From a virus (lineage: Duplodnaviria > Caudoviricetes): a DNA stretch of 64,000 nt. Numbering within the stretch: the stretch's first letter is position 1; the number at the start of each line of letters is the position of its first letter. The DNA lies in the IMG/VR virus record IMGVR_UViG_2974512403_000001, positions 15,222-79,221 of that record, one strand, 5' to 3'. Below the pieces are notes generated by a model. That model worked only from the letters and a program-made list of their open reading frames with translations, was not told where the DNA came from and made no database searches. Below, one piece after another: positions 31,703 through 60,999 of this stretch. Both the position numbers and the translations under genes were made by a program.

Positions 31703-31758
31703 TGTCTCTCACCATTCCTTTTCATATACTATATGTATGCCCCTGATCGGGGCGATTG

Positions 31759-32181
31759 TTAAGCTTGACTAGCCTGTGATTCTTGTACAGCAGATTCACT
31801 CGTTACAGGAGCAACGGCAGATTCTACTTGAGATGATGCAATAGAAGCTTGTGATTCTGCAACGGATGCTTGTGATGCGGCCTGTGATACAGCTTGACTA
31901 GCTGCTTGTTTTGTGTTATTGACTTCGCTTTGAACTTCTGTCTCAGCGTCTTCTTGGATCGTTGGGGCTGATACAGTTTGAACATCGGTCACAACACCGA
32001 GCATACCAAGAATCGTTAATACCGTGTTAATAACAGCAACAATACTGGTCCAGTCTCCAGGGAATTTAATCCCAAAGGCAAACAATACTTGTTGGATCAA
32101 CACGATCAATAATGAGATAATCCCAGCAATTAACTTACCATTTAAGCTTCCATCAGCATTCTTAAAACTAATTTTTTTCAT
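31759..32181 (-). CDS. holin
   Basis: MKKISFKNADGSLNGKLIAGIISLL..., two TM segments, Ser/Ala/Gln tail; likely ATG 32181. Confidence 0.8.
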   Translation of the reverse strand: MKKISFKNADGSLNGKLIAGIISLLIVLIQQVLFAFGIKFPGDWTSIVAVINTVLTILGMLGVVTDVQTVSAPTIQEDAETEVQSEVNNTKQAASQAVSQAASQASVAESQASIASSQVESAVAPVTSESAVQESQASQA

Positions 32182-32464
32182 TTTTTTCAGCTTCCTTTTC
32201 ATATAGGTGTTTAAATTCCATATCGTGACCATCTAGTCGCCCTTCGGCCTTAATAATTCTATTTTCAAGACCATTAATCTGATCGGCGCTTTGTTGTCTG
32301 AACTTCATGCTCTCGTCAGTAAATTTGTCAATTCTGTTGCTCACTTGATTAAGTGGGTTCCTGACAGTTTTGTTTAAAATCCAATTAGCTAAAACGCAGA
32401 CACTTGTTATGATCGCCACAATTGACCCCCATTCGTCCCAACCTAAACCGAGAAAAATGTGCAT
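32168..32464 (-). CDS. single-TM coiled-coil lysis-module protein
   Basis: WDEWGSIVAII TM segment then coiled coil; between lysin and holin. Confidence 0.65.
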   Translation of the reverse strand: MHIFLGLGWDEWGSIVAIITSVCVLANWILNKTVRNPLNQVSNRIDKFTDESMKFRQQSADQINGLENRIIKAEGRLDGHDMEFKHLYEKEAEKNEKN

Positions 32465-32466
32465 GA

Positions 32467-33852
32467 TTACCGCACCACCAAACGTTGTCCAGGATAAATG
32501 GTCGACCAAGAATAAATACCATTTAAACTGGCTAATTTTGACACAGTTGTACCGTTATCATTGGCAATCTTCCACAAACTATCACCTGAAACGACCGTGT
32601 GATACGTGTGAGAGACACCAACAACTCGCTTACCGTAGCTTTCACCACCATTTACACCTAATGCAATGTAACCGTAGTAACCGTTAGATCGTAAGTATCT
32701 CGCCCAAACATAGTCAGACTTGATAATTACTTGGTTGTACTGAACGCTTTCACCACTAAAGTAAGTAGCTACCTTAGAGTACCCAGTTCCTGCCCCAGAA
32801 CGTACATTTAAAGTTGTGTTAGGGTAGAAAGTGCCATTTTGGTTGTAGGTTTGAGAGCTTGCTTTGTTATTTGAAGTTGAGTTTGAACTAGAACCTTGCT
32901 TTGTAACATGTTCTGCTAATGTCCAACCAACAGCAGTGCTACCACTCTTTAATAGTAACATCTGGTTTGACTTACCCTCAGTGACTTGTTTTACTTGGCC
33001 AACCGTATAAGTCTTATGAAGAACAGAGCTTGAAATTGGCGTCTTGGTGTCTCCAGCATCCCATTTTGCGACACTAGAATTAATCTTAACTTTATCACCA
33101 ACTTTATATCCACCGACATAATACTTGGTTACATCTTGCTTGTTGGCTGCGTTGTCGCCAATCCACCACTTAACAGGATGCTTTGAGGTGATAACCTTGT
33201 TGGTATCAACTGCTAAACTAAGGCTTGTTGAATAACCAGAGTCTGTGTGTTGCCATAAAGCCGGGTCTTTGAGATAATGATTGCTGTAGTTTGCTTCCCA
33301 GAATCCGTCGTAATTACTCATTGATCCGATGTAGTTATTGTAGAAATAACTGCCGGAATACAAGATAACTGGACGCTTGGTCAAACTTTGCATCTCACTA
33401 CCCCACGCTGAAACAGCACTTGAATAACTACCAGAAGTAGTTGTCATTTCTTCGGCATCGTTAGCAAAAAACTTAGCATGTGGAGCGCGACTATGCAGAT
33501 CCTTCGCTTCTTGTTTGGCATCCGCAGCGTTGATATAACGCGAATACGAATAAACGCCATATGGTGTCCCAGCCTTTTCAAGATTAGCAATAGTGTTTTT
33601 ATATTGCACATCTTGATAATTAGATCCGTACTGAACCCGCACAATAACAAATGACGTCTCAGATTTTAATGCAAGCGCCTTTTGATAGGTAACTGCGCCT
33701 TGCCATTCTGAAATATCAATAACCTTTTTAACAACCGCACCATCGCTAGTATTAGCAGCTTTAGCTGTTTGTGGTAAGGCCGTGGATCCAAACACTCCTA
33801 GTGCCAGAGCAGTCATGGAACCATATAGTGCACGTTTTACTTTATTTTTCAT
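32467..33852 (-). CDS. signal-peptide endolysin: GH25 muramidase + SH3b + LysM
   Basis: N-terminal signal peptide ending AKA, IDISEWQG/NDAEE/LWQHTD, TTLNVRSGAG, HTVVSGDSLW. Confidence 0.9.
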   Translation of the reverse strand: MKNKVKRALYGSMTALALGVFGSTALPQTAKAANTSDGAVVKKVIDISEWQGAVTYQKALALKSETSFVIVRVQYGSNYQDVQYKNTIANLEKAGTPYGVYSYSRYINAADAKQEAKDLHSRAPHAKFFANDAEEMTTTSGSYSSAVSAWGSEMQSLTKRPVILYSGSYFYNNYIGSMSNYDGFWEANYSNHYLKDPALWQHTDSGYSTSLSLAVDTNKVITSKHPVKWWIGDNAANKQDVTKYYVGGYKVGDKVKINSSVAKWDAGDTKTPISSSVLHKTYTVGQVKQVTEGKSNQMLLLKSGSTAVGWTLAEHVTKQGSSSNSTSNNKASSQTYNQNGTFYPNTTLNVRSGAGTGYSKVATYFSGESVQYNQVIIKSDYVWARYLRSNGYYGYIALGVNGGESYGKRVVGVSHTYHTVVSGDSLWKIANDNGTTVSKLASLNGIYSWSTIYPGQRLVVR

Positions 33853-33914
33853 TCTGTATGCACCTTTCTATAATATTTCGTGATTTATTTCGATTTAAAA
33901 TTCAAATTTTATTG

Positions 33915-39127: not shown

Positions 39128-41521
39128 CTAACCATCATCAACATCATCACTATCGTCGCTTCCGTTATTATCATCGTTGACAATTGGCATTGCCGGACGA
39201 TAGACAATATCAGTTGAATATTGCATTTGTTTCTTCGGCGGATTACCGTCCGGTGGTGTGACATTAAATGAGTGTACAAGTGTTTTCTTTCCGTTTATAG
39301 TCGCAAATGATAGACTTTCTGGTTCAATGATTTGATTAGAAAGACCCAAACCAATTAATGTATCATAATATGGGTGCATGACTTCTCCGCGATGTAATAA
39401 ATTAACGCAATAGAAAGAGCATGTTTTCCCTAAATACTGGTTGCCAACGCTCCAATAAACATAAGGGAAATCAAGCGCCTGTCCTTGGAATATATCATCA
39501 TCACCGACAAAGTCATAATCGAGCATATTTATCGTATACATAACCGTTTTTACACCGGCTAGTAGATCAGATACGTTTAAAACAAAGAACATATAGCCAC
39601 CACTACTATATCCGGCAACATTGTGCTCTCTGTCAAATGCCACCCTTGGATAGCCCCCTGGAGTAATTAAGTGATCAGTGTCATTAATTCCCAATGTTTT
39701 GCCACCCTGATACTTAAACCTAACGATGTCCCAGTTACCTGAACTATTACGTTGATTACACATAATCCATGGTTGCCCTTCTTGATACATAACTCCAAAG
39801 GTAGTACCATGTCCTCCACCAGTTAAAACCATTTTATCTATAAGCTTGAAATCTTTATCACGGTGCATAAAATTGCAATCGTCCCCACTAGTAGCAGCAG
39901 ATTCGTACCACGTACCATCATCTAACTGCTCTAAGTGTTGGGCAATACGGTGAACATCACTATCATATGGATCAAACTCTCCGATTTTAACATAGTTGTT
40001 TTGATTGATTGACAATTCAGGATCTTCTGATATGTAGTCACCATCAATATAGGCTCGAATATTCCCCATAAGTGATGGAGTTACATTTATAATGTCTCCT
40101 GTTTGTTCCCAGTTAGGATCTATTGAGCCATCTGTATTCACGTGTCGCCAAGCAAACCCTTTACTATCAACGTAAGTACTAATGTTTTGCTTACCAACCC
40201 ATGCACTCAGAAGCAGTCTTTTTGATGTTTCACCTTGCGCAAAGTCTAACCCATCTGGATGAGATAATACAGGAGTGATTGCAGTTGCGTCACTTAGTGC
40301 TTTAGAAACTGCATCTTCTAGCGCTGATTGGTAATCTGTCAACCATGAAGGAGTGGCGACTGGAACTGTTACAAATTCACCAAAAGCAATAGTGCTTGAA
40401 TATGGAGATGCAAAGCTAATCGTACGTTGAATGACGCGTCCAGTTGCATCGAGAGCCGGAGTAATGTGATCATCTTTAAATCTAATTGTCGTTCCTAGAG
40501 GTGGCAAAAATCCGGGAGCAACATTCACCTCATAATATGTCCTGGGATGATTAAATAATTTTAACATCTGCTGTGCCCAAGCTTTCAGCCCAGTGTTGTC
40601 ACTGATCTGATTTGCAGTAATGACGCCTTCCAGATACTTTCCTTGGAGAGACCCCTCATAATTGTACAATTGATTAGCGTCATCATCGACAATATATGTC
40701 GCACCATTGTTGTGTGGTGCCATTGTTGACCCATTTTCACCATAAGCGTATAATTTAGTGATGGGTGCAGCGACTGTTGTTCGCTTAATATTCGTTATAT
40801 TTTGTCCAAAAATAGCTTCTTTGTATACAATATCAGAAGAAAGCTCGTCAGTGATTTCAACAATCTTATCTACTATTTTACCTTGCGTATTAATTGTAAC
40901 GTAAGCATCAATTTCAACGTCAAACAATTGTATTGCACTTTGGAGCAAGACGGTACCTTTTGTCTTACCATCAAACATATCTGTGCTAACTAAATTTACG
41001 TTTGATGTATTATAATCAACTTGCCAGCCGGAGTTCTGAAAAACTTTGCTAAATACTTGCTCAGCGTTCTGGCTTGTAACAGTTGACTTAATTGGAATAG
41101 TGAAGGCCAAATCTCGAAGCATTAAATTACATACATAAGCTACAGTGTTGACAGACGACGTGATTGTTGTTTCTTCTGATGTTGAGTAAATATACATAAC
41201 ATACCATCTATTCAAATAATCGTCATGATATGCTAGATAGTTTCCTGATACTACTTTGTCACTATCTGGTTGTCCTTGTGGGACTGTAACAGTTCCTTTA
41301 TGGTCGAATTTTTTAGATTGAGCATTCAGATTAACCGTCCCTTGGTAGTTATCCTCTGTCCCAACACTAACATCATCGTCATATTCTGTACTAGTAGCAT
41401 CTGAATCTGCTAGTTGCATTGAAATTGAATCACTAGTAAATTTAGTAGCTCCATCGACGGTTAGTAACCCGACATTATTAAAATGAGAATCTAAAATTAA
41501 ATATTGATTACCAAGTGACAT
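39128..41521 (-). CDS. Tal / prophage tail endopeptidase-like baseplate hub with C-terminal propeller-like domain
   Basis: position after Dit; ITKLYAYG motif; likely ATG 41521. Confidence 0.75.
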   Translation of the reverse strand: MSLGNQYLILDSHFNNVGLLTVDGATKFTSDSISMQLADSDATSTEYDDDVSVGTEDNYQGTVNLNAQSKKFDHKGTVTVPQGQPDSDKVVSGNYLAYHDDYLNRWYVMYIYSTSEETTITSSVNTVAYVCNLMLRDLAFTIPIKSTVTSQNAEQVFSKVFQNSGWQVDYNTSNVNLVSTDMFDGKTKGTVLLQSAIQLFDVEIDAYVTINTQGKIVDKIVEITDELSSDIVYKEAIFGQNITNIKRTTVAAPITKLYAYGENGSTMAPHNNGATYIVDDDANQLYNYEGSLQGKYLEGVITANQISDNTGLKAWAQQMLKLFNHPRTYYEVNVAPGFLPPLGTTIRFKDDHITPALDATGRVIQRTISFASPYSSTIAFGEFVTVPVATPSWLTDYQSALEDAVSKALSDATAITPVLSHPDGLDFAQGETSKRLLLSAWVGKQNISTYVDSKGFAWRHVNTDGSIDPNWEQTGDIINVTPSLMGNIRAYIDGDYISEDPELSINQNNYVKIGEFDPYDSDVHRIAQHLEQLDDGTWYESAATSGDDCNFMHRDKDFKLIDKMVLTGGGHGTTFGVMYQEGQPWIMCNQRNSSGNWDIVRFKYQGGKTLGINDTDHLITPGGYPRVAFDREHNVAGYSSGGYMFFVLNVSDLLAGVKTVMYTINMLDYDFVGDDDIFQGQALDFPYVYWSVGNQYLGKTCSFYCVNLLHRGEVMHPYYDTLIGLGLSNQIIEPESLSFATINGKKTLVHSFNVTPPDGNPPKKQMQYSTDIVYRPAMPIVNDDNNGSDDSDDVDDG

Positions 41522-41569
41522 CCGTTTGCCTCCTATTTCTTTATGTACGGGAGATATTTCTCCCAAATT

Positions 41570-49143: not shown

Positions 49144-49384
49144 CTAATGATCACGACTATCAAGCTCAGCTTTATGGTCTTCCATCCAATAACCCAAAGG
49201 TTCGATGGTGTCATCATCATCACCACTAACTTGACTACCATCTTCTTCAACTGTTAAAGTCTCGATAAGATCAAAATAGTTAGTTTCTTCTAGGTTATTA
49301 AAAGTATCATTATGTTGCTGGATAAGATCTCTTTCGAGACGATTGATGTTATCTAGCGTCTCCTGAAACGTCTGCGGTGTCGCT
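49144..49384 (-). CDS. frameshifted C-terminal part of tail assembly chaperone (+1 frame)
   Basis: overlaps TAC 3' end in +1 frame, no RBS, directly precedes TMP. Confidence 0.7.
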
Positions 49385-49738: not shown

Positions 49739-49846
49739 ATAAATCTCCTCGTCTTTCATATTAAATTATGTATACCACCAAAAGGTGGTAGTTGCTATTC
49801 AGCAACGATGGTTGCGCCATCATAACTTGGAGTTATCGACACCACT

Positions 49847-50458
49847 TTAGGCGCCGGCGTCACTGGGGGTGTACCCTGGGAAGATAAACTTCATCCAATC
49901 ATCAATCTTAAATGCAGTGTTAGCTTCATCGCCCTTAGCGTATGCAACCTTATCGGAAGAACGGTTAACAGCAGTAAACGTTAATGAATCAGCAGCTAAC
50001 TGTTCCGTATCGGTGTTAGTTTGCATGTTGTGTTCTTCAAGACCAAAAGTCCCCTTAACTAACGCTAAATGAAGAATGTTGTTTAGGCGCCCGTGGGTAA
50101 CAAATTCAAGTGCTGAATATGGCGCCCGCGTGTCAGAAGTAACGACTGAGAAGCCTTTAGAATTATCAACACCAGTAATAGCGTCGATGATATCTTCTGG
50201 AATGTCGTTTGCTCCAACGGTCGCAGTGATTGAACCAGTACCCTTACCAGATGTTTCAACCACCATATCAGACCCATAGATCTTAGTCATGGTTGGTGCT
50301 AAACCTGTGATATTACCGACCGTCATACCTTGCGCAGTTGATGCGTTTAGGTTGAAGACGCCGGTAGTACCAATAGCCTTATTCGTTAAATCAATTTTTT
50401 CGGTATCTTGTGTGAAAATAGCGACTTTGGCACTATCAATACCTTTGGTTTTTGCCAT
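49847..50458 (-). CDS. major tail (tube) protein, phi13-like
   Basis: MAKTKGIDSAKVA..., KIYGSD, YSALEF, position. Confidence 0.88.
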   Translation of the reverse strand: MAKTKGIDSAKVAIFTQDTEKIDLTNKAIGTTGVFNLNASTAQGMTVGNITGLAPTMTKIYGSDMVVETSGKGTGSITATVGANDIPEDIIDAITGVDNSKGFSVVTSDTRAPYSALEFVTHGRLNNILHLALVKGTFGLEEHNMQTNTDTEQLAADSLTFTAVNRSSDKVAYAKGDEANTAFKIDDWMKFIFPGYTPSDAGA

Positions 50459-50475
50459 TAGTAATTACCTCTTTC

Positions 50476-50853
50476 TTAATAAATTGTCTTTTTGAAATGG
50501 TAAGTGCTATATAATTGAGACGTGCTAGGGTCTCTATCAATACCGCCACCAATTGTTTGAAACCAACCATTCTTTCTTAACAAGTTCCTGATTGGTCTTT
50601 CGTATAACGCTGTTAAATCTCCATCCGCTTTAACTGGATAAAAGAATTGAACTTGAACTGTCCCGTCATCAGAAATAATATCGTCGCTTCCAAAACCACT
50701 AGGAATACGAGAAATATCATTTACTAAAATGACAATTTTATTCAGCTTTTGTGACTGAATGCTGTGTGGCAGTCCATATGAGAATACATACTTTGGATCA
50801 ATTCCGTCAACTCCAGAGTTGCGGATGATCTCTTTTACATCATTTGAAATCAT
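50476..50853 (-). CDS. tail terminator/completion protein (DUF806-like)
   Basis: VQVQFFY, position. Confidence 0.7.
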   Translation of the reverse strand: MISNDVKEIIRNSGVDGIDPKYVFSYGLPHSIQSQKLNKIVILVNDISRIPSGFGSDDIISDDGTVQVQFFYPVKADGDLTALYERPIRNLLRKNGWFQTIGGGIDRDPSTSQLYSTYHFKKTIY

Positions 50854-51308
50854 TATAGCAACCCCTTTGCATCAAGAATCGCTTTAGCAGTTTGTGTCTG
50901 AGCAGTAAAGATTTGATCATATGGCATCGTCTTTGTTGCGTTCTCAAACCAAAACTGTGCTGGTTGCCTATACGTTCCCCAGTCAGTCCAGACCGCGATT
51001 GGGTAAGCTTTTCTCTCAAACCCAACCTCTGTTGCACCATCAATGAACTGATTAGGCTTATGGGTAATATGATCACGCAAGTGCCCGATTGATTCTCCAT
51101 ATAACTGTTTATCCTTGACGTCTTCAAATTCGTCATATGGTGTGTTATCATATAAGTGTTTTTCAATAATAGGTACAGCAGATTCAACGATTGCGGAACG
51201 TTCTTTTCTTGAAAGTTTAAAATTATCAAGCTTTCTCAATAGCTCGTCTTCACCAGTAACCTCAATTGATCCGAGACCATTAGTTACCAATGTTTTATTA
51301 ACTGCCAA
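50853..51308 (-). CDS. HK97 gp10-like tail completion protein
   Basis: GHLRDHI...WGT..QPAQFW; likely TTG 51308. Confidence 0.75.
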   Translation of the reverse strand: MAVNKTLVTNGLGSIEVTGEDELLRKLDNFKLSRKERSAIVESAVPIIEKHLYDNTPYDEFEDVKDKQLYGESIGHLRDHITHKPNQFIDGATEVGFERKAYPIAVWTDWGTYRQPAQFWFENATKTMPYDQIFTAQTQTAKAILDAKGLL

Positions 51309-51720
51309 CGTCATCATCTCCATATCCGCCAGTAGATGCTTGATTACCACCGTTTTTAACAACTGACTTCAATGATAACAAATCATAAGTGACGATGGCA
51401 GTTGTGTCAGGAACTTTGTAAGTGATAATATAAAACTTACCTCGATACCTAGCCCGATAACTATCATAATCAAAATTAGGGCGGTGTTTAACAGCGATCA
51501 CCATCGTATCTTCCATATCCATACCATTAACACCAACAATGTTTCTGTCTGATACTCGATATGGAGCACAATGGAATGTGTATTTAATTTTAAAGTTGCT
51601 ATCATCTAACGTGTCGGCACCATTATCAATAATGTTACCGTTGGACAGCTCCGTGTATTCATCTGCTACGCCCAAATACACTTTTTCTTTGTATCGCCAC
51701 AGGTCAACCTTATTAGCCAT
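51298..51720 (-). CDS. head closure protein
   Basis: position and size; IAVKHRP. Confidence 0.7.
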   Translation of the reverse strand: MANKVDLWRYKEKVYLGVADEYTELSNGNIIDNGADTLDDSNFKIKYTFHCAPYRVSDRNIVGVNGMDMEDTMVIAVKHRPNFDYDSYRARYRGKFYIITYKVPDTTAIVTYDLLSLKSVVKNGGNQASTGGYGDDDVGS

Positions 51721-51732
51721 TTATGCACCTTC

Positions 51733-52026
51733 TTAAATTGAGAAATTGCGTCCATAGTTGATAACCGTGTCAAGTGACGCAACATTTTGAGTCCCACTTG
51801 TAACAGGAGATCCATCTCTACGTAAGTATGATGCAGTTGCGACCTCTAAGACGGCTGTGTCAATCATGCTTTGATAGTCTTCTTGCCTCTTGTTAAGAAA
51901 CTGGTTGTCTTTTCCTTGAACATATAAATCAACATAGTTCTTAGCGTTATCTAAATAAATCTTAACATCTTCATCGTCATCTGCATTAATATGATTTTTA
52001 AAATCATCGAGAGAAACTGACATCAT
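51733..52026 (-). CDS. head-tail connector (gp6-like)
   Basis: SLDDFKNHI.ADDDED..YLDNAK pattern. Confidence 0.8.
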   Translation of the reverse strand: MMSVSLDDFKNHINADDDEDVKIYLDNAKNYVDLYVQGKDNQFLNKRQEDYQSMIDTAVLEVATASYLRRDGSPVTSGTQNVASLDTVINYGRNFSI

Positions 52027-52060
52027 TGCACCTCCTATGTACCCGTTAAGGGTTTACCCC

Positions 52061-52510
52061 TTAAGCGGTTGGCGTTGCTTTAACTGCTGCCGACTTAGCT
52101 GATTCCCCAGCACCGTTCTTAACCGTTGCTTGGACAGTATATTCAGTACCAGCAGTTAATCCAGTAATTGACCCAGTTAATGAAGTCTTTAAATCTACCG
52201 TTCCATTATTGGTGCCGTCAGTCCAATAAGCAACTCGGTCGGTGATTGCACTGCCTGTATTTTCGCCATCAACTAAAGTAACATCAATTTTGCCAGAACC
52301 AGCGGTTAGCGTTGCGGTTGGTGCTGATGGTACTTTATCTAAAGTTGTAAAATCTGAAATTGTTGTCTTCTCAGATGCACCGGCATATGCAATTTGATAG
52401 CCAGAAACCTTTGTGTTCGGCTTTAACCCAGTAATTGTAACTGGAGATGGCTGATTGTCAATTTTCTTTGCGCCAGCATTGTCGTAAACATCAAAATTTG
52501 CCAAAAACAT
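52061..52510 (-). CDS. tandem fibronectin type III-like protein (virion decoration candidate)
   Basis: ITGLKPNTK and ITGLTAGTEYTVQ repeats; start may be TTG 52504. Confidence 0.75.
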   Translation of the reverse strand: MFLANFDVYDNAGAKKIDNQPSPVTITGLKPNTKVSGYQIAYAGASEKTTISDFTTLDKVPSAPTATLTAGSGKIDVTLVDGENTGSAITDRVAYWTDGTNNGTVDLKTSLTGSITGLTAGTEYTVQATVKNGAGESAKSAAVKATPTA

Positions 52511-52629
52511 AACCTCCTATCGTGAAACCATATGTATGCCCCCGCAATGGGGGTAATCGGATTTACTACTTGGCAACAACCGTTGCACCATCGGCAGTCG
52601 GTGTTACACTAGTCACCGTTGGTGCCGGA

Positions 52630-53910
52630 TTAATTACTCGCAGGCTTAGCTACAACGAATGCTGATGGATTAGTAACAGTACCGTCCATATATCCGTTAA
52701 GAACAACCAAGTGACCACCAGTCATAGCTTGCGTAGTATCTGAAACTACGTGAGTTAACTGTAAGCCTTGCTTGGTCATAATCGTATAACCAGCGTTAAA
52801 GTTACCAAGGATAATTTGACCATCCTTGTTACCGTTCAAGACGTCTGAAACGAACACTGGGATTCCTTGGAAGGAATAACCAGGGCGTACGCCAACTGCA
52901 CCGGCGATAGCCGTTTGCATTTGTGGCTTAAAGATCAAATGTTCGTTGTCGTCATCTTTCAATTTAGAAACAGCATTGAAGGCATCACGAGACATAACGA
53001 AGATCGCTTGATCTAAGTATGCAGGGTTAATTGACATAGTAAAATCAAGCATTTCGTCCAAGGTTGGAGTTGCACCAGCTAAAGTAACGACCTTAACATC
53101 ATCAGCACCAATAACTGGTTTAAACGTCTTGTTGGCGTCTTCGCCAGTCTTAGCACCGACTAATACCGCACGTTCAATAGCTTTACCTAATGAACGACCC
53201 AAACGGCCAATAGCATAATCGACAACGTCCGGTGCACTATCGTTAATCATCATTTCTGATAATTGCAATGCGGCACCGACACGCTTTTGAGTCAAGGTAA
53301 CGTACTTCAAAGTTGGGGTTTGTGCCTTAACAGCTTCGAGTTCACCAACGAAACCATCATCAGAAGTATCGTTTTCACGAACGACTTCCAAGTTACCATT
53401 CATAGAACCAACCTTGTTTGACAAAGCAAACACTGGTGAAGTTTCTTGTAACTTCTGGATAATTGTTTGTGAGACGCTCGTTGGAATTAAAACACCACCG
53501 TTTGATGAAGTACCATTAACAGCATTACCCCATGACAAACCATTGTCAGGAAGATCGCGAGATTCTTGTGGCAAGTCTTTTTGTTCTTTAACAGCTTCCA
53601 CATACTTCTTGGCTGCTTCACTCCCACGTAACTTACCACGGATCATATCAGCGGTGGCACGCTTTTCGAGGGCTTTAAATTGCTTCTTTTCCATTTCCAC
53701 ACTCCGTTCATTGTTTGCTGGAACTGCGTTACGACGTTCTTCGTCCAGTTCAGCAATATCATCGTTAATTTTTGAAATATCGTCTTTAATTGAACGCATT
53801 TCCTTAATTTGATCATCAGTGATCGTCTTATTATCAATGGCGTCTTTAAAACCGCCCAATTTTTCCTTTAAAGCAGTCCGCTTTTCTAAAAGACCTTTCT
53901 TAGTCTTCAT
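52630..53910 (-). CDS. HK97-type major capsid protein
   Basis: N-terminal delta-domain coiled coil, GGVLIP, ILGNF; ATG 53910 after GGAGG. Confidence 0.92.
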   Translation of the reverse strand: MKTKKGLLEKRTALKEKLGGFKDAIDNKTITDDQIKEMRSIKDDISKINDDIAELDEERRNAVPANNERSVEMEKKQFKALEKRATADMIRGKLRGSEAAKKYVEAVKEQKDLPQESRDLPDNGLSWGNAVNGTSSNGGVLIPTSVSQTIIQKLQETSPVFALSNKVGSMNGNLEVVRENDTSDDGFVGELEAVKAQTPTLKYVTLTQKRVGAALQLSEMMINDSAPDVVDYAIGRLGRSLGKAIERAVLVGAKTGEDANKTFKPVIGADDVKVVTLAGATPTLDEMLDFTMSINPAYLDQAIFVMSRDAFNAVSKLKDDDNEHLIFKPQMQTAIAGAVGVRPGYSFQGIPVFVSDVLNGNKDGQIILGNFNAGYTIMTKQGLQLTHVVSDTTQAMTGGHLVVLNGYMDGTVTNPSAFVVAKPASN

Positions 53911-54934
53911 CTGCCATGCCTCCAATTTCTTCATAGAGCTTAGATGCTTCAAGACTCCGTTTTTCTTGCTTCTTTTTTTCGTCGTCTTTCTTGCTTGGTT
54001 TCTTACCAGCCGGAACTTGAACTCCGTCTTTTGGCTTATCATCGTCCGTTTGAGTGTCTTCGGGTGCGTCACCAGAATCGTCTGGTTCTGGAACGTCCGA
54101 GTCATCGTCACGGGCGGATAATACTCCTTGAATACCAGTAAGAATGCTTTGCGTTAAAGTAGCTGCAAAGTCGTCAAGGTCGATAGTTTGTTTTGTGTCA
54201 GTAACTGCATCCTTACCATCTGGTTGATCATCACGCTTTGCTGGCTTTACCACAACTTCATTTGCTGGTAATTTACCGGCACGACGTTCGAGTTCTTCAC
54301 AAAGATCTCTTGTTTCTACACTGTCAAGCTTCAAGTCATTACCCTCCTTTTTAATATTCACAATTTCCGAAACGCTCTTAATGCCTCTTTTTTCAAGGTC
54401 TCTTAGCGTCTTCAATCCACGTGCTTCAATGCTAGAACTTAAATATGCTGGGAATCTAACAGCAGAAACTTCTTTTAGGAACAGTTCGTTGACTGTTCTA
54501 AGAGGAACGCCATCATCAAAGTCTCCGCCATCCATATCCCAACTGTCATCTAGGACGATAAACCCAAAACTCATACTAGTAATAACACCAGTCTTAATTA
54601 ATTCATAGGTGTCTCGCCCATCATTTGTATCTAGGATTTGAGCTTCCATATAAAGCCCTTGGTCGTCTACTCTTAAGACGAGCGATCCGTTTGCAGTAGT
54701 AGCCAGAAGCTTGTCCGAGTCATGCTCAGCGTAAAAGTCGATTATGTCTCCGTCTGAGATTGCAGACTCGAAAGCCGTTGGAGAGATTGTCTCTCGAAAT
54801 GGGCTACCATCAGCCGACATAACTTGACTATAAGACCCGGCTCGGTTAACATATCCAGAAACTTTGAGATTGTCATCGTCAAAAGATAAATCTCTAGTCT
54901 CAAAGCTGAGGGTTCTTAATTCTGTCTTTTTAAT
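53900..54934 (-). CDS. HK97-type prohead protease with acidic C-terminal extension; predicted ATT start
   Basis: VSGYV, FYAEHD, SMSFGF, EVSAVRFPAY; frame open to ATT 54934, 8 nt after AGGAGG. Confidence 0.88.
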   Translation of the reverse strand: MKKTELRTLSFETRDLSFDDDNLKVSGYVNRAGSYSQVMSADGSPFRETISPTAFESAISDGDIIDFYAEHDSDKLLATTANGSLVLRVDDQGLYMEAQILDTNDGRDTYELIKTGVITSMSFGFIVLDDSWDMDGGDFDDGVPLRTVNELFLKEVSAVRFPAYLSSSIEARGLKTLRDLEKRGIKSVSEIVNIKKEGNDLKLDSVETRDLCEELERRAGKLPANEVVVKPAKRDDQPDGKDAVTDTKQTIDLDDFAATLTQSILTGIQGVLSARDDDSDVPEPDDSGDAPEDTQTDDDKPKDGVQVPAGKKPSKKDDEKKKQEKRSLEASKLYEEIGGMADED

Positions 54935-56366
54935 CTTGATTGCCTCCTAACGCATTGTTATCAGCCTTATGTTGATGGCTGTCTTGCTGATTTTTTGTAT
55001 TTGGTGCTTTCTGGGCACCTTTTTCAGGCGATTTGCCAACTGTGGTACTATCAGAGTCAATCGGCGTGTTTGCACCAACATCGGCACCACCAGCAATCCC
55101 AAGGTTAGGAATCTTCATTTCACCAGTCTTAGGATAATACAGAACAGATCCAAGACTTAAATTAATGAAGTCGTCTCCAGCAATGTCTGCGAACCCAAAC
55201 TTGTTTCTGAACTCATCATAAGAAATCAAGCCTTTGTCATAAAGTGCGCCATAAGAAGCAACCTTTTCTTTAAAAGTATTCTGCATGATTGTATCAGTGT
55301 CGAACTTGAAGAAAATTCCGTCTTCTTTTTCGCTCTCTAGCAATAATTCCTTATTGATAGCAGCTTCAAAGCTTGACAGAATCGGTTTCAAACAATACTG
55401 GAAGAATTGGAGGTTATTTTGCTCATTAGAGTTATACTTATTCGCGCTCGCATTGATTAGTGTTTCTGGAATATTGAACATGCGCGCGATTTCGCCAAGC
55501 ATTGCTTTTTTGCTGGAATCTAGTTGCATATTATCTGGATTCGTGCTAATCTGTTTATATTCAAGCCCACCTTCTAAGAACAATGTCTTACCAGCGTTCT
55601 TACTACCCGTATAACTTTGGTTAAACTGCGATTTCAAACGATCTAACGTTTCTTGTGCCACAGTTCTTTGACTAGAAACAGCCCCAACTGGAACGGCGCC
55701 GTTGGCCATTAAGTTCTTTTCGTAGTCTCGTTGCGCCAGCGCTAGTTGTAACGTGGGTGCATAATCCGACATGATACCAGTAGAAGTAATACCGTCTGGG
55801 GTGTCTGAAATAATGTTCATTAGATCATCTTCGTCATAGTTATAACTCCCAGACTGGGAATTATACGTGTAGACACCATAATACTTATACCCACCATAGG
55901 TATAGACTTCAGTTGTCATGTCTTTAGACATTAAGGGGTAAATACCATTAATGTTATTTTTGCTTCTATCTATATACGAGAACGACCTACCATACAGAAG
56001 CAAGTCCTTAACAACTGAGCGCTTATAATTAAAAGCGGACATCGACTCATTAACTTGCGAATTAAGTAATGCTGTACGATAGTCATTCTTAACGGGTAAC
56101 GGGACACCTTCATCGCTATTCTTCATCATAAGAATATCAAGTGACGCAACAGTGTCAGCAACAAGTGCTACTGCGGCACCAAATGATGGAATTGCCATAA
56201 CAGAATCTTCTGTGATTGGCTCTGTGTCTCCGTTTAAAAGCATTGGCCCAGATCCAGTTTGGGATCTTACAAAAGTGCCACCTCGGCTGTCTTGTCCCGG
56301 CTGCTGTTGCGTAAATGGTAAGCTAAAAATATTCTTTAGCGACCATTTATTATTACTCTTAGCGAT
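54930..56366 (-). CDS. HK97-family portal protein; predicted ATC start
   Basis: LLLYGRS, NAGKTLFLEGGLEY, IARMFNIP; frame open to ATC 56366, 8 nt after AAGGGGTG. Confidence 0.9.
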   Translation of the reverse strand: MAKSNNKWSLKNIFSLPFTQQQPGQDSRGGTFVRSQTGSGPMLLNGDTEPITEDSVMAIPSFGAAVALVADTVASLDILMMKNSDEGVPLPVKNDYRTALLNSQVNESMSAFNYKRSVVKDLLLYGRSFSYIDRSKNNINGIYPLMSKDMTTEVYTYGGYKYYGVYTYNSQSGSYNYDEDDLMNIISDTPDGITSTGIMSDYAPTLQLALAQRDYEKNLMANGAVPVGAVSSQRTVAQETLDRLKSQFNQSYTGSKNAGKTLFLEGGLEYKQISTNPDNMQLDSSKKAMLGEIARMFNIPETLINASANKYNSNEQNNLQFFQYCLKPILSSFEAAINKELLLESEKEDGIFFKFDTDTIMQNTFKEKVASYGALYDKGLISYDEFRNKFGFADIAGDDFINLSLGSVLYYPKTGEMKIPNLGIAGGADVGANTPIDSDSTTVGKSPEKGAQKAPNTKNQQDSHQHKADNNALGGNQD

Positions 56367-56384
56367 TTTTAGTTCACCCCTTTG

Positions 56385-58094
56385 TTAGAGCAAGGTGATA
56401 TTGGCCTGTCCACCGATGATATTTGAGAATTCATCAATCTCCCATAGTGACATTGCGTCGACTACGGCTGCGACCATATCAATTTTGCCATTTGATTTTT
56501 TCTTATTTAAGAAATAAGATAGGTTACTGTCTGTAACCATTCTTGCGTTCATAAAGTTCTCTTTAAGCATATCATTCTTGTCATATGCAAAATTTCCATC
56601 TTCGATAGACTCACGAAGCAATTTCGTCCCTGGATATAACCCTTTTGCATTTTGTGGAACCTCAATGCCATCATATCCGGCAGCTAAAAATTTAGCCACC
56701 GTAGATCGTGCGTTCCACTTATCATACCCAAAGCCTTTAATATTGACCCCGTATTTTTCCTCTAACTTAAAGAAGAAGTCTTCAACAAAGCCATAATCAA
56801 TCGTTGTATCTCCAGACGAATAACCCCAACCTTCGTTTTCGCTGTGCTGGTAGTCCCATCCTTCGACCTTTGATTTCTCATTAATTCTCCCGGCTGGGAA
56901 GAACGACCATGCTTTTGCTACATATTTAGCATGACTTTCATCAAATGTAACCATCGCAAGGCCAAAATTATCACGAGATTCGGCGAAATCAAGGCCCACA
57001 AATACATCTTTACCATACCAATCATAACCTTGAACTAATTCTGAATTGTCAAGATCGTTCTCTGTGACAAACTGTTCAGCTTGTGCACCGTCAACGAAGA
57101 TATTCATGAATTTTGTCAAAAAGTTTTGACGTTTATCAGCATAAGTAATGGCATCTTCACGATCTTTAAAAAGCCTTTTCTTAACCGATGGAAATTCTTG
57201 TGAAAGAGGATTGACTTTTATCAGCTCTTTGTCACTAGTCGCCCATTTTTTGGGTTCATCTGGACGATATATCAGAGCAAAATAGGTCGGATCATATAAT
57301 TCTCCATCAACAATCTTGTCCTTGGCACGCTCTATCTCAGCAGTCATAGGATTATGTAATGAATCATACGCAGTTGAAATAATAATGCCGAGCGGGTTTG
57401 AAACAAGGTTTTGCCCAGATTGCATGGCTTGTATAGGATAACCATTTGGCAAAGCTCCAACTTCGTCAGCTAAAAATGCTACTGGTTCACGAGCATCAAG
57501 CCTATTGTTCGAGTTAGCTAGTGGCTTATAAGTATTCTTTGTTACTAAGCAAGTTATTTCCTTATTGGTAACTTTGAAGAACCTTGCTAGTTCTGGAGAA
57601 CCATCAATCAAAGAGTCAACCTGTGTCTTCAATTGAGACGACAATTCTAAGTCTGGAGCGACTGAATAGAACTTTGAATATCTAGGCTCTAAAATTAACA
57701 ATAAGATAAAAACTATAGAACTTATGAAAGTTTTTCCATTCTTGCGTGGGATAAGCATAGTAGCTGTGTTATATCTACGCAAACTATGGTCATCTTTATG
57801 TCTCCAGCAGAAAATATTTACAAAAAAGAACCACTGAAACCCAGCAAGGGCATCATAAGCACTTTCTCCTCGTCTAGGTCCAGTTGCCATAGTGATTAAT
57901 TTAAGTAACTTAGACACCTTATCAAGCGCCCTTATGTCAAAATAGTAGTCGCCTTTTCCGTTTAAACTATCATTAACTTCTCTAATGAAGCGATCGGTGA
58001 CAATTTTTACGTCATTGTTGACGATAATATCGCCATTTTTGATTCCAAGCGCATATTTGTAAGCTGGATGATTAAATATTTCTTTATCGTTCAA
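56385..58094 (-). CDS. terL: terminase large subunit
   Basis: IPRKNGKT Walker A, ADEVG Walker B, GLDFAES, GYDKWN, KIDMVAA; likely TTG 58094 after GAGGTG. Confidence 0.93.
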   Translation of the reverse strand: MNDKEIFNHPAYKYALGIKNGDIIVNNDVKIVTDRFIREVNDSLNGKGDYYFDIRALDKVSKLLKLITMATGPRRGESAYDALAGFQWFFFVNIFCWRHKDDHSLRRYNTATMLIPRKNGKTFISSIVFILLLILEPRYSKFYSVAPDLELSSQLKTQVDSLIDGSPELARFFKVTNKEITCLVTKNTYKPLANSNNRLDAREPVAFLADEVGALPNGYPIQAMQSGQNLVSNPLGIIISTAYDSLHNPMTAEIERAKDKIVDGELYDPTYFALIYRPDEPKKWATSDKELIKVNPLSQEFPSVKKRLFKDREDAITYADKRQNFLTKFMNIFVDGAQAEQFVTENDLDNSELVQGYDWYGKDVFVGLDFAESRDNFGLAMVTFDESHAKYVAKAWSFFPAGRINEKSKVEGWDYQHSENEGWGYSSGDTTIDYGFVEDFFFKLEEKYGVNIKGFGYDKWNARSTVAKFLAAGYDGIEVPQNAKGLYPGTKLLRESIEDGNFAYDKNDMLKENFMNARMVTDSNLSYFLNKKKSNGKIDMVAAVVDAMSLWEIDEFSNIIGGQANITLL

Positions 58095-58221
58095 AATAAT
58101 CACCTCAATATATGTAAAGCCCAACTGTGGCATGGGCCAGCCATTTTATTAACGTTGCTGGTTATAAAAGAACATGGAAAGAAAACACCCAGCCGTTTTA
58201 CTTTATTGGAATTAAGCTACA

Positions 58222-58294
58222 AGCTCCCAGCCGGACTCGAACCGACATTACTAGATTGGAAATCTAGCGTGTTAGCCAATTACACTAGGGGAGC
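58222..58294 (-). tRNA. tRNA-Gly(TCC)
   Basis: CTAGA-TTTCCAA-TCTAG anticodon arm, TTCGAGT T-loop, U73. Confidence 0.88.
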
Positions 58295-58310
58295 GTTTAA
58301 CGTTAGGAAA

Positions 58311-58443
58311 AGCGCGTAAACCCTTTAAGTTATGCTAAACATAATATCCTAATAAGGATTATGTCTCATAAGCCGTTATTGCCACTTACGTTGGTTAGAC
58401 TGGACGTTTGCACTTAGTCTATGGTGACCAACCATAACACGCT
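58311..58443 (-). ncRNA. unassigned four-way-junction RNA
   Basis: closing AGCGTG/CGCGCT and GTTATG/CATAAC helices enclosing three hairpins. Confidence 0.55.
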
Positions 58444-58448
58444 CAGTA

Positions 58449-58519
58449 TGCCTTGTCCCAGAGATGGACTGAGATTTCCTGTTTACAAGACAGGTGTTCT
58501 ACCGTTGAACTAACAAGGC
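58449..58519 (-). tRNA. tRNA-Thr(TGT), degenerate T-loop
   Basis: GCCTTGT/ACAAGGC acceptor, CCTGT-CTTGTAA-ACAGG; T-loop TCCATCT. Confidence 0.75.
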
Positions 58520-58609
58520 TTATATAGCATTGGAAGCAATATGTTACTTCAATCACAGCGCCATCCGTGACAATTCTATACGTTTCTATGGATATTTTTA
58601 GGATTCCAT

Positions 58610-58780
58610 CATCCACTAATAGGCATTTGTACACTCATAAGTCCCCACTTGGGCCACATTGTTAAGAGGTGTGTGGGGTGCGATTGTGTATAGGGTCGGA
58701 TAAGCAGACGTCACTTATCGGGACTAGCGGTCAGATACAAAGCCTCTGCCGGGCAATATGGCGACCCTCCAACCATATCA
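58610..58780 (-). ncRNA. unassigned GC-rich, possibly pseudoknotted RNA
   Basis: ATATGG/CCATAT hairpin whose loop AGGGTCG complements downstream CGACCCT; AGGCTTTGTAT/GTACAAATGCCT long-range helix. Confidence 0.5.
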
Positions 58781-58813
58781 AAAACTAAAATGTAAGTTTT
58801 ATTGGTAATACAA

Positions 58814-58962
58814 CCACCCAGGTGGGTATCGAACCCACGCACAACGAATGCCTTTGCTCAAGCACGCTGTTAGATCTACTATTTTGGTAAAGGCTGATTA
58901 AGACTATGCAGCGACATACCTTTAACCACTCGGAAGATCCGTGTGCTCTCCATAACTGGGTA
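58814..58962 (-). ncRNA. 149-nt tRNA-like RNA (acceptor + T-arm, branched domain replacing D/anticodon arms)
   Basis: TACCCAG/CTGGGTG acceptor, GTGGG-TTCGATA-CCCAC T-arm, internal helices GCACACG/CGTTGTGC, GATCT/AGATC, TGGTTAAAGGT/GCCTTTACCA. Confidence 0.65.
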
Positions 58963-59143
58963 AATATGTATGCCCGACACACTGGCGCCTGTAGCACCGT
59001 GTTATCAGGGCTTTATCTATCTCAACCGAGGCTAGACCAGATAGATTTGGTTTTTCTACTAGCAAAAGAATGCTTGCCTCCAAAGGCTACTCCATTATGG
59101 AACTTTTACTTTCGGGTGCGCGCTTCTCGGAACTTAAACTATG

Positions 59144-59653
59144 TTATTTGTTATAATTTAATTCGCCAGACAAGAAATCGTTAATGGTTGTTTGCATTTC
59201 TTGCATGAACCCTACCACACTAGCAATTGTGTAGTTTTCAGGAATAGGATCGCCAGCACCGACATATGACAGAAGAATTTGTACTTCCATTCTAAACCGA
59301 TTGAGAATACCTTTGATTGGTTCTAAGAAGTCATGCTCATAACTTAAGATGGAAAAATTTGGAGCTTCATGATTGATTTGTTGGTAAACAATATGAGATA
59401 AGCGATTGTTATATTCATCATCATCAAAATTAATGTCATCGCTAGAGTCATCGCTCTTGTTTGCGTAACTGGCAACCGCTCTCTGAGTCATCCAATCAAG
59501 ATAATAGTAAAGCTTCTTTAGCAAGTTACATGCACTGTTCGCTTGATCATCCGATCGAGCACTGACTTTAATCACATCTAGGTTCAAATCACGTTCTCTT
59601 TGCATCATATGTTCAAAGTTTTCAAGCTGATAAACATTTCTTGACTTTGTCAT
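59144..59653 (-). CDS. hypothetical protein
   Basis: 169-aa ORF, AGGT RBS. Confidence 0.65.
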   Translation of the reverse strand: MTKSRNVYQLENFEHMMQRERDLNLDVIKVSARSDDQANSACNLLKKLYYYLDWMTQRAVASYANKSDDSSDDINFDDDEYNNRLSHIVYQQINHEAPNFSILSYEHDFLEPIKGILNRFRMEVQILLSYVGAGDPIPENYTIASVVGFMQEMQTTINDFLSGELNYNK

Positions 59654-59789
59654 TTTGCATTACCTACCTTTTTATTTCTTAAAATGGGTACAACTCCCAA
59701 AATAAGCATATTACTATGTATCATAAGTGGGTTTTACTACCCCACGTGTATTATATCTAAAATATGTACTGCTGACGTTATGTCAGCTT

Positions 59790-60293
59790 TTAACTGTTGA
59801 TAATTTTCTCTAACTCACTATTGCCACTGCTTCGATCACCAATAGTCATGGCACTCAATTGAGCACGGCTAGATGGAGACAATCCATACTGAACAGCCAA
59901 TGTTCTAAAGCGATCTAAGAACTTAATATGCGTGTTAATGGCCGGATTTTCAACCATTTTGATACCAAATTTTGTTCTTTGCTCAACCATTAATTCGTCA
60001 TTCTTCATTGCTTTGTTGGACTGTTCCATCATAGCCAAACATTCAGCTAAAGCACCCACGCCCATTCTGTCTACATTTGATAGAATATCAACATCGGCTA
60101 AAAGATGGTAGATATAATGATAATACTTTTCAGCAGTTTCCCACCCTTTAATAAAGTCAGGTGCTACATTTACTTCATCATCTTCACCTTTGAGCCGTTC
60201 TTCATCCGCAATACGTGCTCTTAATTCTGATTGAGACTGATTGTGACCCTTGGTTAGAGCAGCGGGTTTTCTTGCATTTGGCAATTTATCCAC
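59790..60293 (-). CDS. terS: terminase small subunit (P27-like)
   Basis: ENPAI...YGLSPSSRAQL motif. Confidence 0.88.
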   Translation of the reverse strand: MDKLPNARKPAALTKGHNQSQSELRARIADEERLKGEDDEVNVAPDFIKGWETAEKYYHYIYHLLADVDILSNVDRMGVGALAECLAMMEQSNKAMKNDELMVEQRTKFGIKMVENPAINTHIKFLDRFRTLAVQYGLSPSSRAQLSAMTIGDRSSGNSELEKIINS

Positions 60294-60297
60294 CTCT

Positions 60298-60750
60298 CTA
60301 AAACGTTAAATCTTTGTCTAAATCTATTTTTACTTTTGTTAAATCCCAGTCGAAATCAATTCCGCCAAGTCCCATAGCAAGGTTACACTCTCGACATAAC
60401 GTAATACAATTTGATTCATCGTACATCAGTGTCGGGAACTTGACCCTTGGTTTAATATGGTGGACAGTTAGATCAGTGTAGACATGCTTATGGAGCTTAA
60501 TTAAGCACCTCTGACACTCGCCACCGTCTCTAAGAATAATTTGTTTCCTAAAAATTCGCCAGCGCTTAGACGTTAACTCTCTGTCTGTGTCACGCTGATT
60601 AATTCTATTCTCCTTGGCAGTTCTATTATTCTTTTTTCTTTTAATTGGGCAATCATGTGTTGAAATGTCAACAATCATGCCACAATAAGGGCATATTTTG
60701 GAGTCCTTACCCGATTTCGTATTCTTCAAGATCATCACCATTAACTTCAA
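60298..60750 (-). CDS. packaging-associated HNH endonuclease (HK97 gp74-like)
   Basis: RDGGECQRC...VHHIKP...TLCRECN; directly upstream of terS; start may be TTG 60729. Confidence 0.85.
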   Translation of the reverse strand: MKLMVMILKNTKSGKDSKICPYCGMIVDISTHDCPIKRKKNNRTAKENRINQRDTDRELTSKRWRIFRKQIILRDGGECQRCLIKLHKHVYTDLTVHHIKPRVKFPTLMYDESNCITLCRECNLAMGLGGIDFDWDLTKVKIDLDKDLTF

Positions 60751-60838
60751 TTAGAATACCGCAATAGGGACAAACAATATATGTGTCTTTCTTGCCTACT
60801 TCGACTGGAGTTGAACATGACGGACATTCTTGTGCCAT
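60707..60838 (-). CDS. 43-aa Zn-ribbon protein
   Basis: MAQECPSCSTPVEVGKKDTYIVCPYCGILIEVNGDDLEEYEIG; GGGGAG RBS; below ORF-track cutoff. Confidence 0.7.
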   Translation of the reverse strand: MAQECPSCSTPVEVGKKDTYIVCPYCGILIEVNGDDLEEYEIG

Positions 60839-60999
60839 GCATCTCACTCCCCTTTAATATGTATTACCAATGCAAAGACTGAAAGAAATCATTGGTATGC
60901 GCTTCCTTGGCAGATTTTTTGAACAATAATGTCCGTCTCTATAACTTTGACGAGTTATGTACGAGAAGATAAAATCTTCTCAGGAGGAATAATGAATGA

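Follow-up and report, generated by a model that had tools for sequence, protein, structure and literature searches.

Hairpin-UACAUA modules in the late RNA of a Lactobacillus plantarum phage are probable processing sites for a MazF-type endoribonuclease

The late genes of a 64-kb stretch of phage DNA, cut out of the 79,221-bp virus record IMGVR_UViG_2974512403_000001 and called the window in the following, are punctuated by a recurring element in which a stem-loop is followed almost directly by the hexamer TACATA (UACAUA in the RNA). Our analysis of the genome sequence indicates that these hairpin-UACAUA modules are probably programmed processing sites of a MazF-type endoribonuclease on the late RNA. 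Four findings lead to this reading: the hexamer is the U/ACAUA site of EndoA/MazF, the phage and all of its relatives encode a MazF that appears to belong to the EndoA clade, within genes, copies of the hexamer in sense orientation are reduced about tenfold and antisense copies are not, and the sites are kept at orthologous gene boundaries while their stems change. The original prediction had taken the elements for cleavage sites in single-stranded RNA, at which the upstream RNA would keep a 3' hairpin and the downstream RNA an intact ribosome-binding site (RBS), and these four findings support it.

The window shares 95% identity with Lenus and SA-C12, two virulent siphophages of Lactobacillus plantarum (Tybeckvirinae, Lenusvirus). 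Late regions with ~75% DNA identity to the window are found in the phages ATCC 8014-B2 (Douglaswolinvirus; hereafter B2) and Satyr and P1 (Maenadvirus). Replication and nucleotide-metabolism genes are located on the plus strand from ~8 to 30.4 kb; the minus strand carries the structural and lysis genes, which extend from ~61.3 kb to a terminator. The late unit corresponds to a polycistronic RNA of ~31 kb that includes a tRNA cluster.

All 12 plus-strand TATGTA positions that had been claimed were found (Table 1), and the modules are built as described: stem-loops of unrelated sequence are followed after 0-6 nt by TACATA on the transcribed minus strand, with a U-run at none of the 12 sites. The gap between hairpin and hexamer is 0-2 nt at 11 of them, and folding energies range from -6.7 to -21.5 kcal/mol. 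The usual order is a stop codon, 19-30 nt containing the hairpin, the hexamer and then 9-29 nt to the next start codon. The proposed overlap with the RBS at 52036 was likewise confirmed, where the sequence TACATAGGAGGTG is followed by 5 nt and the ATG, as was the distance of 4 nt between the motif at 58111 and GAGGTG. Two further copies of TATGTA on the plus strand, at 40031 and 57353, lie inside the genes for Tal and TerL and are outside the 12-site set. The remaining intergenic regions of the late unit contain either no hairpin or a hairpin with a U-run (at the operon end, and once upstream of the tape-measure gene).

Table 1. Modules and associated features in the window. Late sites are named after the position of TATGTA on the plus strand; orthologous sites are given by their positions in B2, Satyr and P1.
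Feature	Position	Strand	Surroundings	Folding energy (kcal/mol)	Gap (nt)	Orthologous sites
Site 31732: hairpin 31739-31753, UACAUA 31737-31732	31732-31753	-	holin stop / recombinase start; 21 nt past stop, 29 nt to start	-9.9	1	B2 34719, Satyr 46469, P1 30114
Site 41542: hairpin 41549-41564, UACAUA	41542-41564	-	Dit / Tal boundary; 20 nt to ATG	-8.2	1	B2 24640, Satyr 57383, P1 20037
Site 43375: hairpin 43381-43404, UACAUA	43375-43404	-	tape measure / Dit boundary	-12.9	0	B2 22805, Satyr 59228, P1 18194
Site 49767: hairpin 49773-49790, UACAUA	49767-49790	-	major tail protein / tail assembly chaperone boundary	-10.4	0	B2 16416, Satyr 65613, P1 11803
Site 52036: hairpin 52043-52068, UACAUA	52036-52068	-	hexamer runs into GGAGG RBS of head-tail connector gene; 9 nt to ATG	-12.7	1	B2 14134, Satyr 67902, P1 9517 (TACATAGGAGGTG kept, stem different in each)
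Site 52531: hairpin 52539-52553, UACAUA	52531-52553	-	major capsid / FN3-domain gene boundary	-9.0	2	B2 13627, Satyr 68425, P1 9010
Site 58111: hairpin 58118-58138, UACAUA	58111-58138	-	4 nt before GAGGTG RBS of terL	-8.5	1	B2 7883, Satyr 74258, P1 3172
Site 58965: long hairpin 58972-59011, UACAUA	58965-59011	-	2-3 nt before tRNA-like RNA and tRNA cluster	-21.5	1	B2 6162, Satyr 75567 (both directly before real tRNA genes)
Site 59715: hairpin 59727-59745, UACAUA	59715-59745	-	second of two tandem modules after terS	-7.0	6	B2 5409, Satyr 75745, P1 2225 (2 nt before tRNA-Pro)
Site 59763: hairpin 59771-59787, UACAUA	59763-59787	-	directly past terS stop	-8.0	2	B2 5355, Satyr 75796, P1 2171
Site 60858: hairpin 60865-60897, UACAUA	60858-60897	-	before small Zn-ribbon open reading frame and HNH gene	-6.7	1	B2 4237
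Site 60956: hairpin 60963-60981, UACAUA	60956-60981	-	after first late open reading frame (61000-61275)	-7.5	1	B2 4109, Satyr 77022, P1 937
13th module: hairpin 20118-20143, UACAUA 20145-20150	20118-20150	+	22 nt before mazF ATG	-10.9	1	
Orphan MazF/PemK endoribonuclease gene, candidate enzyme	20173-20538	+	121 aa; Pfam PF02452, E 6e-18			
107-aa gene, PHROG 14545	20535-20858	+	overlaps end of mazF by 4 nt; without Pfam family; synteny with P1 and Satyr, 29-31% identity			
Canonical bidirectional intrinsic terminator	30439-30468	.	13-bp stem and U-run, in contrast to the U-less hairpins of the modules; ends late transcription unit			

The signal is in the placement of TACATA and not in its abundance, as the whole window contains 39 copies where ~51 are expected. 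The motif and folding scan that had been suggested beforehand was run on the window and its relatives and recovered the coupling of hairpin and hexamer. In an unbiased scan of the 363 hairpins of the window (both strands), TACATA was the commonest hexamer within 7 nt past the 3' side (11 times), and it also came out on top in B2 (10), Satyr (12) and P1 (8). When the same scan was applied to phiJL-1 and Sha1, two L. plantarum phages without MazF, T-runs were found at the top instead. Pooling of 61 non-coding hairpin sites from five genomes gave a gap of 0-2 nt in 56, stems of 5-14 pairs and a median hairpin length of 21 nt; the only conserved positions were those of the hexamer. Conservation at orthologous boundaries had been named in advance as a test that might speak against the prediction; all 12 boundaries were found to carry a site in B2, as were 10-11 of them in Satyr and in P1. 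Each of these three phages also carries a module before mazF or before the small open reading frame (ORF) preceding it, and also 2-8 nt before tRNA genes. The stems themselves turn over. At the connector gene, where the window has a 26-nt stem, stems in the relatives read for instance CCCCATTTTGGGG, GCCCCGTTTTGGGGC and CCCCGTTTTTCGGGG, and TACATAGGAGGTG is invariant in the four genomes despite these differences.

UACAUA is the target of known MazF enzymes. In vivo, EndoA/MazF of Bacillus subtilis cuts only U^ACAUA, after the first U, leaving a 5'-OH (PMC11780869). MazF of Listeria and Staphylococcus aureus has the same site, and the S. aureus enzyme has the weak off-targets UACUUA and UACAUC (bioRxiv 10.64898/2026.08.06.743204). 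The frequency of these hexamers in phage genes was compared with that after shuffling of synonymous codons within each ORF; the set comprised the ORFs of 100 codons or more from five genomes with MazF (278 kb). On the sense strand TACATA occurs 5 times where 53.0 copies are expected (ratio 0.09, z -7.6), and its reverse complement is present at 75 vs 82 (ratio 0.91). Depletion of related hexamers is graded: the two that correspond to the S. aureus off-targets are half-depleted (TACTTA, 47 vs 86.9, ratio 0.54; TACATC, 32 vs 60.6, ratio 0.53), TACATT is reduced to a ratio of 0.67 (82 vs 121.8), and neither TACATG (47 vs 47.8, ratio 0.98) nor TACAAA (215 vs 206.7, ratio 1.04) is depleted. For the genes of the window alone, synonymous shuffles gave 13.9 +/- 3.2 expected sense copies of TACATA vs 5 observed, and for the reverse complement 17.7 vs 21. 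The few residual sense sites in genes are predicted to be mostly base-paired (unpaired 0.32 vs 0.59, p = 0.002), and several of them lie in doubtful small ORFs.

Other causes of this purge were considered. Codon-pair bias was rejected, since all three frames are depleted in the MazF-carrying genomes (1, 2 and 2 observed vs 4.2, 19.7 and 29.3 expected). Where the direction of transcription changes from one gene block to another, the purged strand changes too, showing that the signal is read in RNA, and the same switch rules out evasion of type III restriction and other effects of the DNA strand. Restriction avoidance was rejected for TACATA because the hexamer is asymmetric and its complement is untouched. 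It does explain the palindromes that head the depletion list, as most hexamers with a stronger depletion than TACATA are palindromic or share the depletion with their reverse complement, a pattern of the restriction-avoidance type. The eight most depleted hexamers in the genes of the window are ATGCAT, CTGAAG, TGCAGG, GATATC, CTTCAG, CTGCAG, GGATAC and CAGCTG (0-2 copies vs 12-19 expected); the relatives avoid GATC-containing words instead.

The modules were also compared with other known elements. Intrinsic terminators are not present at the sites: hairpins are there, but their tail consists of UACAUA and mixed A/U and not of a U-run. A terminator scan found 0 of 12 on the transcribed strand and flagged the stems at 49773-49790 and 59771-59787 on the opposite strand only, while the true terminator at the end of the late unit was found. 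RNase III sites have a stem of ~20 bp or longer that is cut within the stem, whereas the modules have stems of 5-14 pairs and a conserved element outside the stem. Sigma-70/sigma-A promoters, with -35 and -10 hexamers spaced by 16-18 nt, are not apparent at the late sites either, since a promoter scan marks none of the 12 as such; the exception is the module upstream of mazF.

Late promoters of another kind have to be weighed separately. TACATA might be a -10-like or initiator element used by the host polymerase together with an unrecognised phage factor, with the hairpins acting as leaky terminators. An AT-rich hexamer located 9-30 nt upstream of start codons would suit such a role, its form resembles the T4 late promoter TATAAATA, which is -10-only, and the copy upstream of mazF lies at the predicted start of a sigma-A-like promoter. 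However, the motif abuts the GGAGG of the connector gene in four genomes, and a start 6-8 nt downstream would lose the RBS; this argument had been part of the original prediction, and it is strengthened by the conservation of TACATAGGAGGTG. The hexamer ends in A, whereas the T at the end of a -10 element is critical; a conserved -35 or TG is absent, and positions -8 to -1 are occupied by variable stem sequence. Searches for sigma r2, sigma r4 and T7-type RNA polymerase detected none of them, and thus neither a sigma factor nor a phage polymerase. A sense-only purge with MazF-like grading of off-targets would be unexpected for a promoter, and a promoter would not account for the sites located 2-8 nt ahead of tRNA genes. 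We therefore regard a promoter function as very unlikely.

A candidate enzyme for the MazF-type processing is encoded on the plus strand of the window (Table 1). The protein covers 107 of the 109 positions of the PF02452 profile and belongs to PHROG 1936 ('MazF-like growth inhibitor'). Its best solved relatives are EndoA of B. cereus, B. anthracis and B. subtilis and MazF of S. aureus (57-59 bits, E ~1e-15; 4MDX, 4HKE, 7BXY, 4MZM), followed by mycobacterial MazF9 with 30 bits; MazFs of other specificity reach at most 30 bits. Arg33-Pro34 and Thr56 of the phage protein align to Arg25-Pro26 and Thr48 of the B. subtilis enzyme, in which Arg25 and Thr48 are the catalytic residues (PMC7354611; PMC8634880), and the Arg-Pro, Thr, LPTH and EQ motifs are invariant across six phage MazFs. 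These similarities suggest that the phage MazF belongs to the EndoA clade. Support for its putative U^ACAUA specificity is indirect and comes from the hexamer in the modules, the purge of the sense strand and the off-target profile. Its gene is present in every Tybeckvirinae phage, with 56-100% identity of the protein and 39% in the L. brevis phage ATCCB, and the closest cellular relatives (at most ~40% identical) come from Clostridia, with none from Lactobacillaceae among the best 80 loci. An EndoA-like match was found in 275 of 301 genomes sampled from the class of the host, and plasmids gave no Lactobacillus match.

An antitoxin MazE is not recognisable near mazF, and the phage MazF thus is an orphan toxin and not part of a canonical toxin-antitoxin pair. 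The 62-aa ORF upstream of mazF is acidic, has no Pfam family and is not conserved in the relatives; in ATCCB a DNA polymerase gene is located upstream of mazF. The 107-aa product of the gene that overlaps the end of mazF is a possible partner or regulator of MazF. The module upstream of mazF has a stem of the same sequence in B2 (47060), and a related form is found in Satyr and P1.

Several observations weigh against processing by the phage MazF. The protein is 35-39% identical to EndoA and has a different beta1-beta2 loop with a 3-residue insertion, where the B. subtilis enzyme has Gly18. An enzyme that depends on single-stranded RNA might be impeded by a hairpin 0-1 nt from the hexamer. The module upstream of mazF (20114-20150) overlaps a sigma-A-like promoter (TTGACA, 17 nt, TATGCT) with the predicted start inside the hexamer, so that primary transcripts and cleaved read-through transcripts would share nearly the same 5' end; the role of this module is ambiguous. 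The Psychrobacillus phage Perkons has a PemK, yet its ORFs show no purge (26 vs 17.0) and it has no hairpin modules. Finally, LP65 (NC_006565), a myovirus of L. plantarum with a 131.5-kb genome in which neither tblastn nor a profile search found a MazF, is purged equally, with 1 sense copy vs 21.3 expected (z -6.1) and 37 vs 31.3 for the reverse complement, and phiJL-1 has none vs 4.9 expected. Together these two phages contain 1 copy vs 31.4 expected (reverse complement 52 vs 45.8), and by frame 1, 0 and 0 were observed vs 9.1, 8.1 and 14.2. A phage MazF is thus not required for the purge, and the modules might also be cut by a nuclease of the host.

Taken together, these data indicate that a UACAUA-specific nuclease probably exists on the side of the L. 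plantarum host. The modules are distributed differently from the purge: hairpin-coupled, co-oriented intercistronic sites number 10, 12, 9, 9 and 7 in the MazF-carrying phages vs 0, 2 and 1 in phiJL-1, Sha1 and LP65. The purge is therefore general among lytic L. plantarum phages, and the punctuation goes with the phage MazF gene. An L. plantarum MazF activated by the shut-off of host transcription, or another host nuclease with this target, might be the only enzyme that cuts the modules. The phage MazF would then serve a different purpose and might, for example, shut off the host, exclude superinfecting phages or interfere with the toxin-antitoxin pair of the host. LP65 and phiJL-1, which lack MazF and show the sense-specific purge in every frame, would agree with this, as would the endogenous MazEF of L. 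plantarum WCFS1 if it has this specificity. Against it stand the near absence of hairpin-coupled sites from phages without MazF, the status of mazF as a core gene of every module-bearing phage without a close cellular relative, and the restriction to certain strains that dependence on a variable host toxin would impose on the phage. In addition, MazF of the EndoA type is reported to be absent from the genus Lactobacillus (bioRxiv 10.64898/2026.08.06.743204). Cleavage of the modules by the host alone appears unlikely to us.

Sites between genes could also be useless leftovers of the purge, tolerated since the hairpin and the nearby RBS buffer the cut. The space between genes is the least harmful place for a cut, and purging is clearly the main trend. 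A neutral hexamer should nevertheless drift at ~25% DNA divergence, yet the late sites are retained in B2, Satyr and P1 to the extent given above while stems and spacers changed, and the close coupling to a hairpin in 56/61 sites has the character of a design feature. MazF-less phages under the same purge keep almost no sites. That the sites are leftovers is highly improbable.

Outside the Tybeckvirinae, a MazF gene alone predicts neither purge nor modules, as seen in Perkons and in NatCom_42228, an unrelated temperate Clostridium phage that carries MazF and has only two modules and no purge. The modules of NatCom_42228 (record positions 38502 and 30871, minus strand) consist of strong hairpins (folding energies -26 and -13), 1 nt, TACATAGAAAGGAGC and the start codon. 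Perkons (1-50000) is enriched in sense TACATA, with 70 sense vs 33 antisense copies overall. Several of these are located, without hairpins, directly on the RBS of early genes (for instance TACATAGGAGG); here a phage with a PemK uses the hexamer in another way. ATCCB contains at least 16 intergenic boxes that read TATGTACAAA on the gene strand, followed by ~15 nt and a TATAAT-like sequence; they look like a repeated early or middle promoter with TGTACA as its -35. Ahead of the transcript start, these boxes contain the MazF hexamer in reverse complement.

Processing by MazF could proceed as follows. A MazF-type RNase specific for single strands would cleave U^ACAUA and divide the ~31-kb late RNA and its tRNA cluster into defined pieces, with predicted lengths that include ~5.6 kb (terL to capsid), 0.5 kb (FN3), 2.3 kb (connector to tail tube), 6.4 kb (chaperone and tape measure) and 1.8 kb (Dit). 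The likeliest cutter would be the orphan MazF of the phage, encoded in the middle-gene block, and a UACAUA nuclease of the host may contribute. The upstream piece would end with a stable hairpin, a tail of 1-3 nt and a 2',3'-cyclic phosphate and would be a poor substrate for 3' exonucleases; a tail of 1-3 nt is too short for exonucleases of the PNPase or RNase R type to engage. The downstream piece would begin with 5'-OH-ACAUA and have an undamaged Shine-Dalgarno sequence at a distance of 4-20 nt from this end. Ribosome binding near the 5' end can shield RNA from 5' decay, as is known from the 5' stabilisers of Bacillus. The capsid gene and the tail-tube gene, whose products are the most abundant, each lie at the end of a predicted segment. 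As the hexamer is purged from the reading frames of the phage, the nuclease would attack host mRNAs and spare the phage coding sequence.

RNA contigs from four metatranscriptome runs, compared with 41300-61299, give at most a weak hint in this direction. None of the 32 pieces listed bridges a site, although these stem from relatives of 90-97% identity and 72 further pieces are not among them. Contigs from two studies end at 52556/52557, immediately on the 5' side of the site-52531 hairpin, and among the 90-97% relatives one contig ends at 49793 (site 49767) and one near 58109 (site 58111).

At two places the late modules stand close to small RNAs. The tandem modules behind terS (59715-59787, minus strand), 48 nt apart, are kept in B2, Satyr and P1; cuts at both would free a hairpin RNA of ~48 nt. 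Site 58965 lies ahead of a tRNA-like RNA and two tRNA genes. The tRNA-like RNA (58814-58962, minus strand, ~149 nt) starts 2-3 nt after the site. In it, an acceptor stem of 7 bp and a canonical T-arm are separated by ~100 nt, and it was called by neither ARAGORN nor Rfam. A weak rli62-like Rfam match (E 0.006, below gathering) overlaps 58706-58812. At ~58690-58700 (minus strand) the window has a hairpin followed by TACACA where Satyr (74452) and P1 (2977) have the same hairpin and TACATA before a conserved non-coding stretch, and TACACA is either a one-letter variant or a lost site. Elsewhere in the window, an intein that includes a homing-endonuclease domain of the LAGLIDADG type splits a C5 cytosine methyltransferase gene (17795-19915, plus strand; Pfam DNA_methylase 1e-64, with further matches to Hint, Intein_splicing and LAGLIDADG_3).

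The proposed system has counterparts in several known ones. With EndoA (MazF-Bs, ndoA) of B. subtilis and MazF of S. aureus and L. monocytogenes it shares the hexamer, the protein family and the equivalents of the catalytic Arg25 and Thr48. These enzymes act on single-stranded RNA and leave 5'-OH products, and the avoidance of UACUUA and UACAUC in the phages matches the reported off-targets. They are, however, chromosomal toxins that are held by MazE and act on scattered sites in host mRNAs, whereas the phage protein, whose specificity we infer, is encoded by an orphan core gene of virulent phages, and its putative sites form a hairpin-coupled intergenic punctuation. Arbitrium phages offer another link between this specificity and a phage life cycle: phi3T and SPbeta use small proteins to modulate the MazEF of their host (PMC10769878; Guler et al. 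2024). In these phages, too, the life cycle is tied to a UACAUA-specific MazF, but they are temperate Bacillus phages that do not encode the toxin, and punctuation by hairpin-UACAUA is not described there.

Processing of phage mRNA by endoribonucleases is familiar from coliphages. According to Dunn and Studier, the early and late mRNAs of T7 are reportedly cut at RNase III sites. There as here, a long phage transcript would be cut between cistrons, with a stabilising 3' hairpin on the upstream piece and the RBS kept on the downstream piece. In T7 the cut is made inside a long stem by the double-strand-specific RNase III of the host, whereas the modules have short stems of any sequence and would be cut in the adjacent single-stranded hexamer, probably by a phage enzyme. 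RegB of T4 cuts GGAG within the Shine-Dalgarno sequence and thereby inactivates early mRNAs. It resembles the proposed MazF activity as a phage-encoded, sequence-specific endoribonuclease that acts on the phage's own mRNAs near translation starts; unlike RegB, the phage MazF would spare the Shine-Dalgarno sequence and target late mRNAs, and the protein folds are unrelated. Suzuki and Inouye (cited in PMC8634880) reportedly combined ACA-specific MazF with ACA-less mRNAs in E. coli for 'single protein production'. Coding sequences free of sites would survive in the phage in the same way while MazF destroys other mRNAs, except that this would be a natural strategy and would include deliberate sites between cistrons, unlike the engineered system.

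A full-text literature search returned no description of a phage-encoded MazF that processes phage transcripts, nor of hairpin-UACAUA punctuation. We consider it an even chance that the Tybeckvirinae have turned a toxin into a dedicated RNA processor, in which an orphan MazF cuts the punctuation, frees stable mRNA modules and tRNAs and degrades host mRNAs, while the reading frames of the phage are kept free of sites. If so, a phage-borne toxin gene for which annotation pipelines give no more than 'growth inhibitor' would gain a clear physiological role, with MazF as a programmed processing nuclease that has evolved targets. The substrates of a toxin-antitoxin RNase could then be listed directly from a genome sequence, which is rarely possible. 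The purge in L. plantarum phages without MazF predicts a pressure from UACAUA-specific RNase that has gone unrecognised in this industrially important host, and operon design in lactic acid bacteria could make use of the modules as compact parts for insulation and processing. The arrangement suggests how phages of Gram-positive bacteria may give different stabilities to segments of a 31-kb late transcript, with the capsid and tail-tube genes at hairpin-protected 3' ends. It would then be a phage-encoded counterpart of the RNase III processing of T7, fused with a natural shut-off of the 'single-protein-production' kind.

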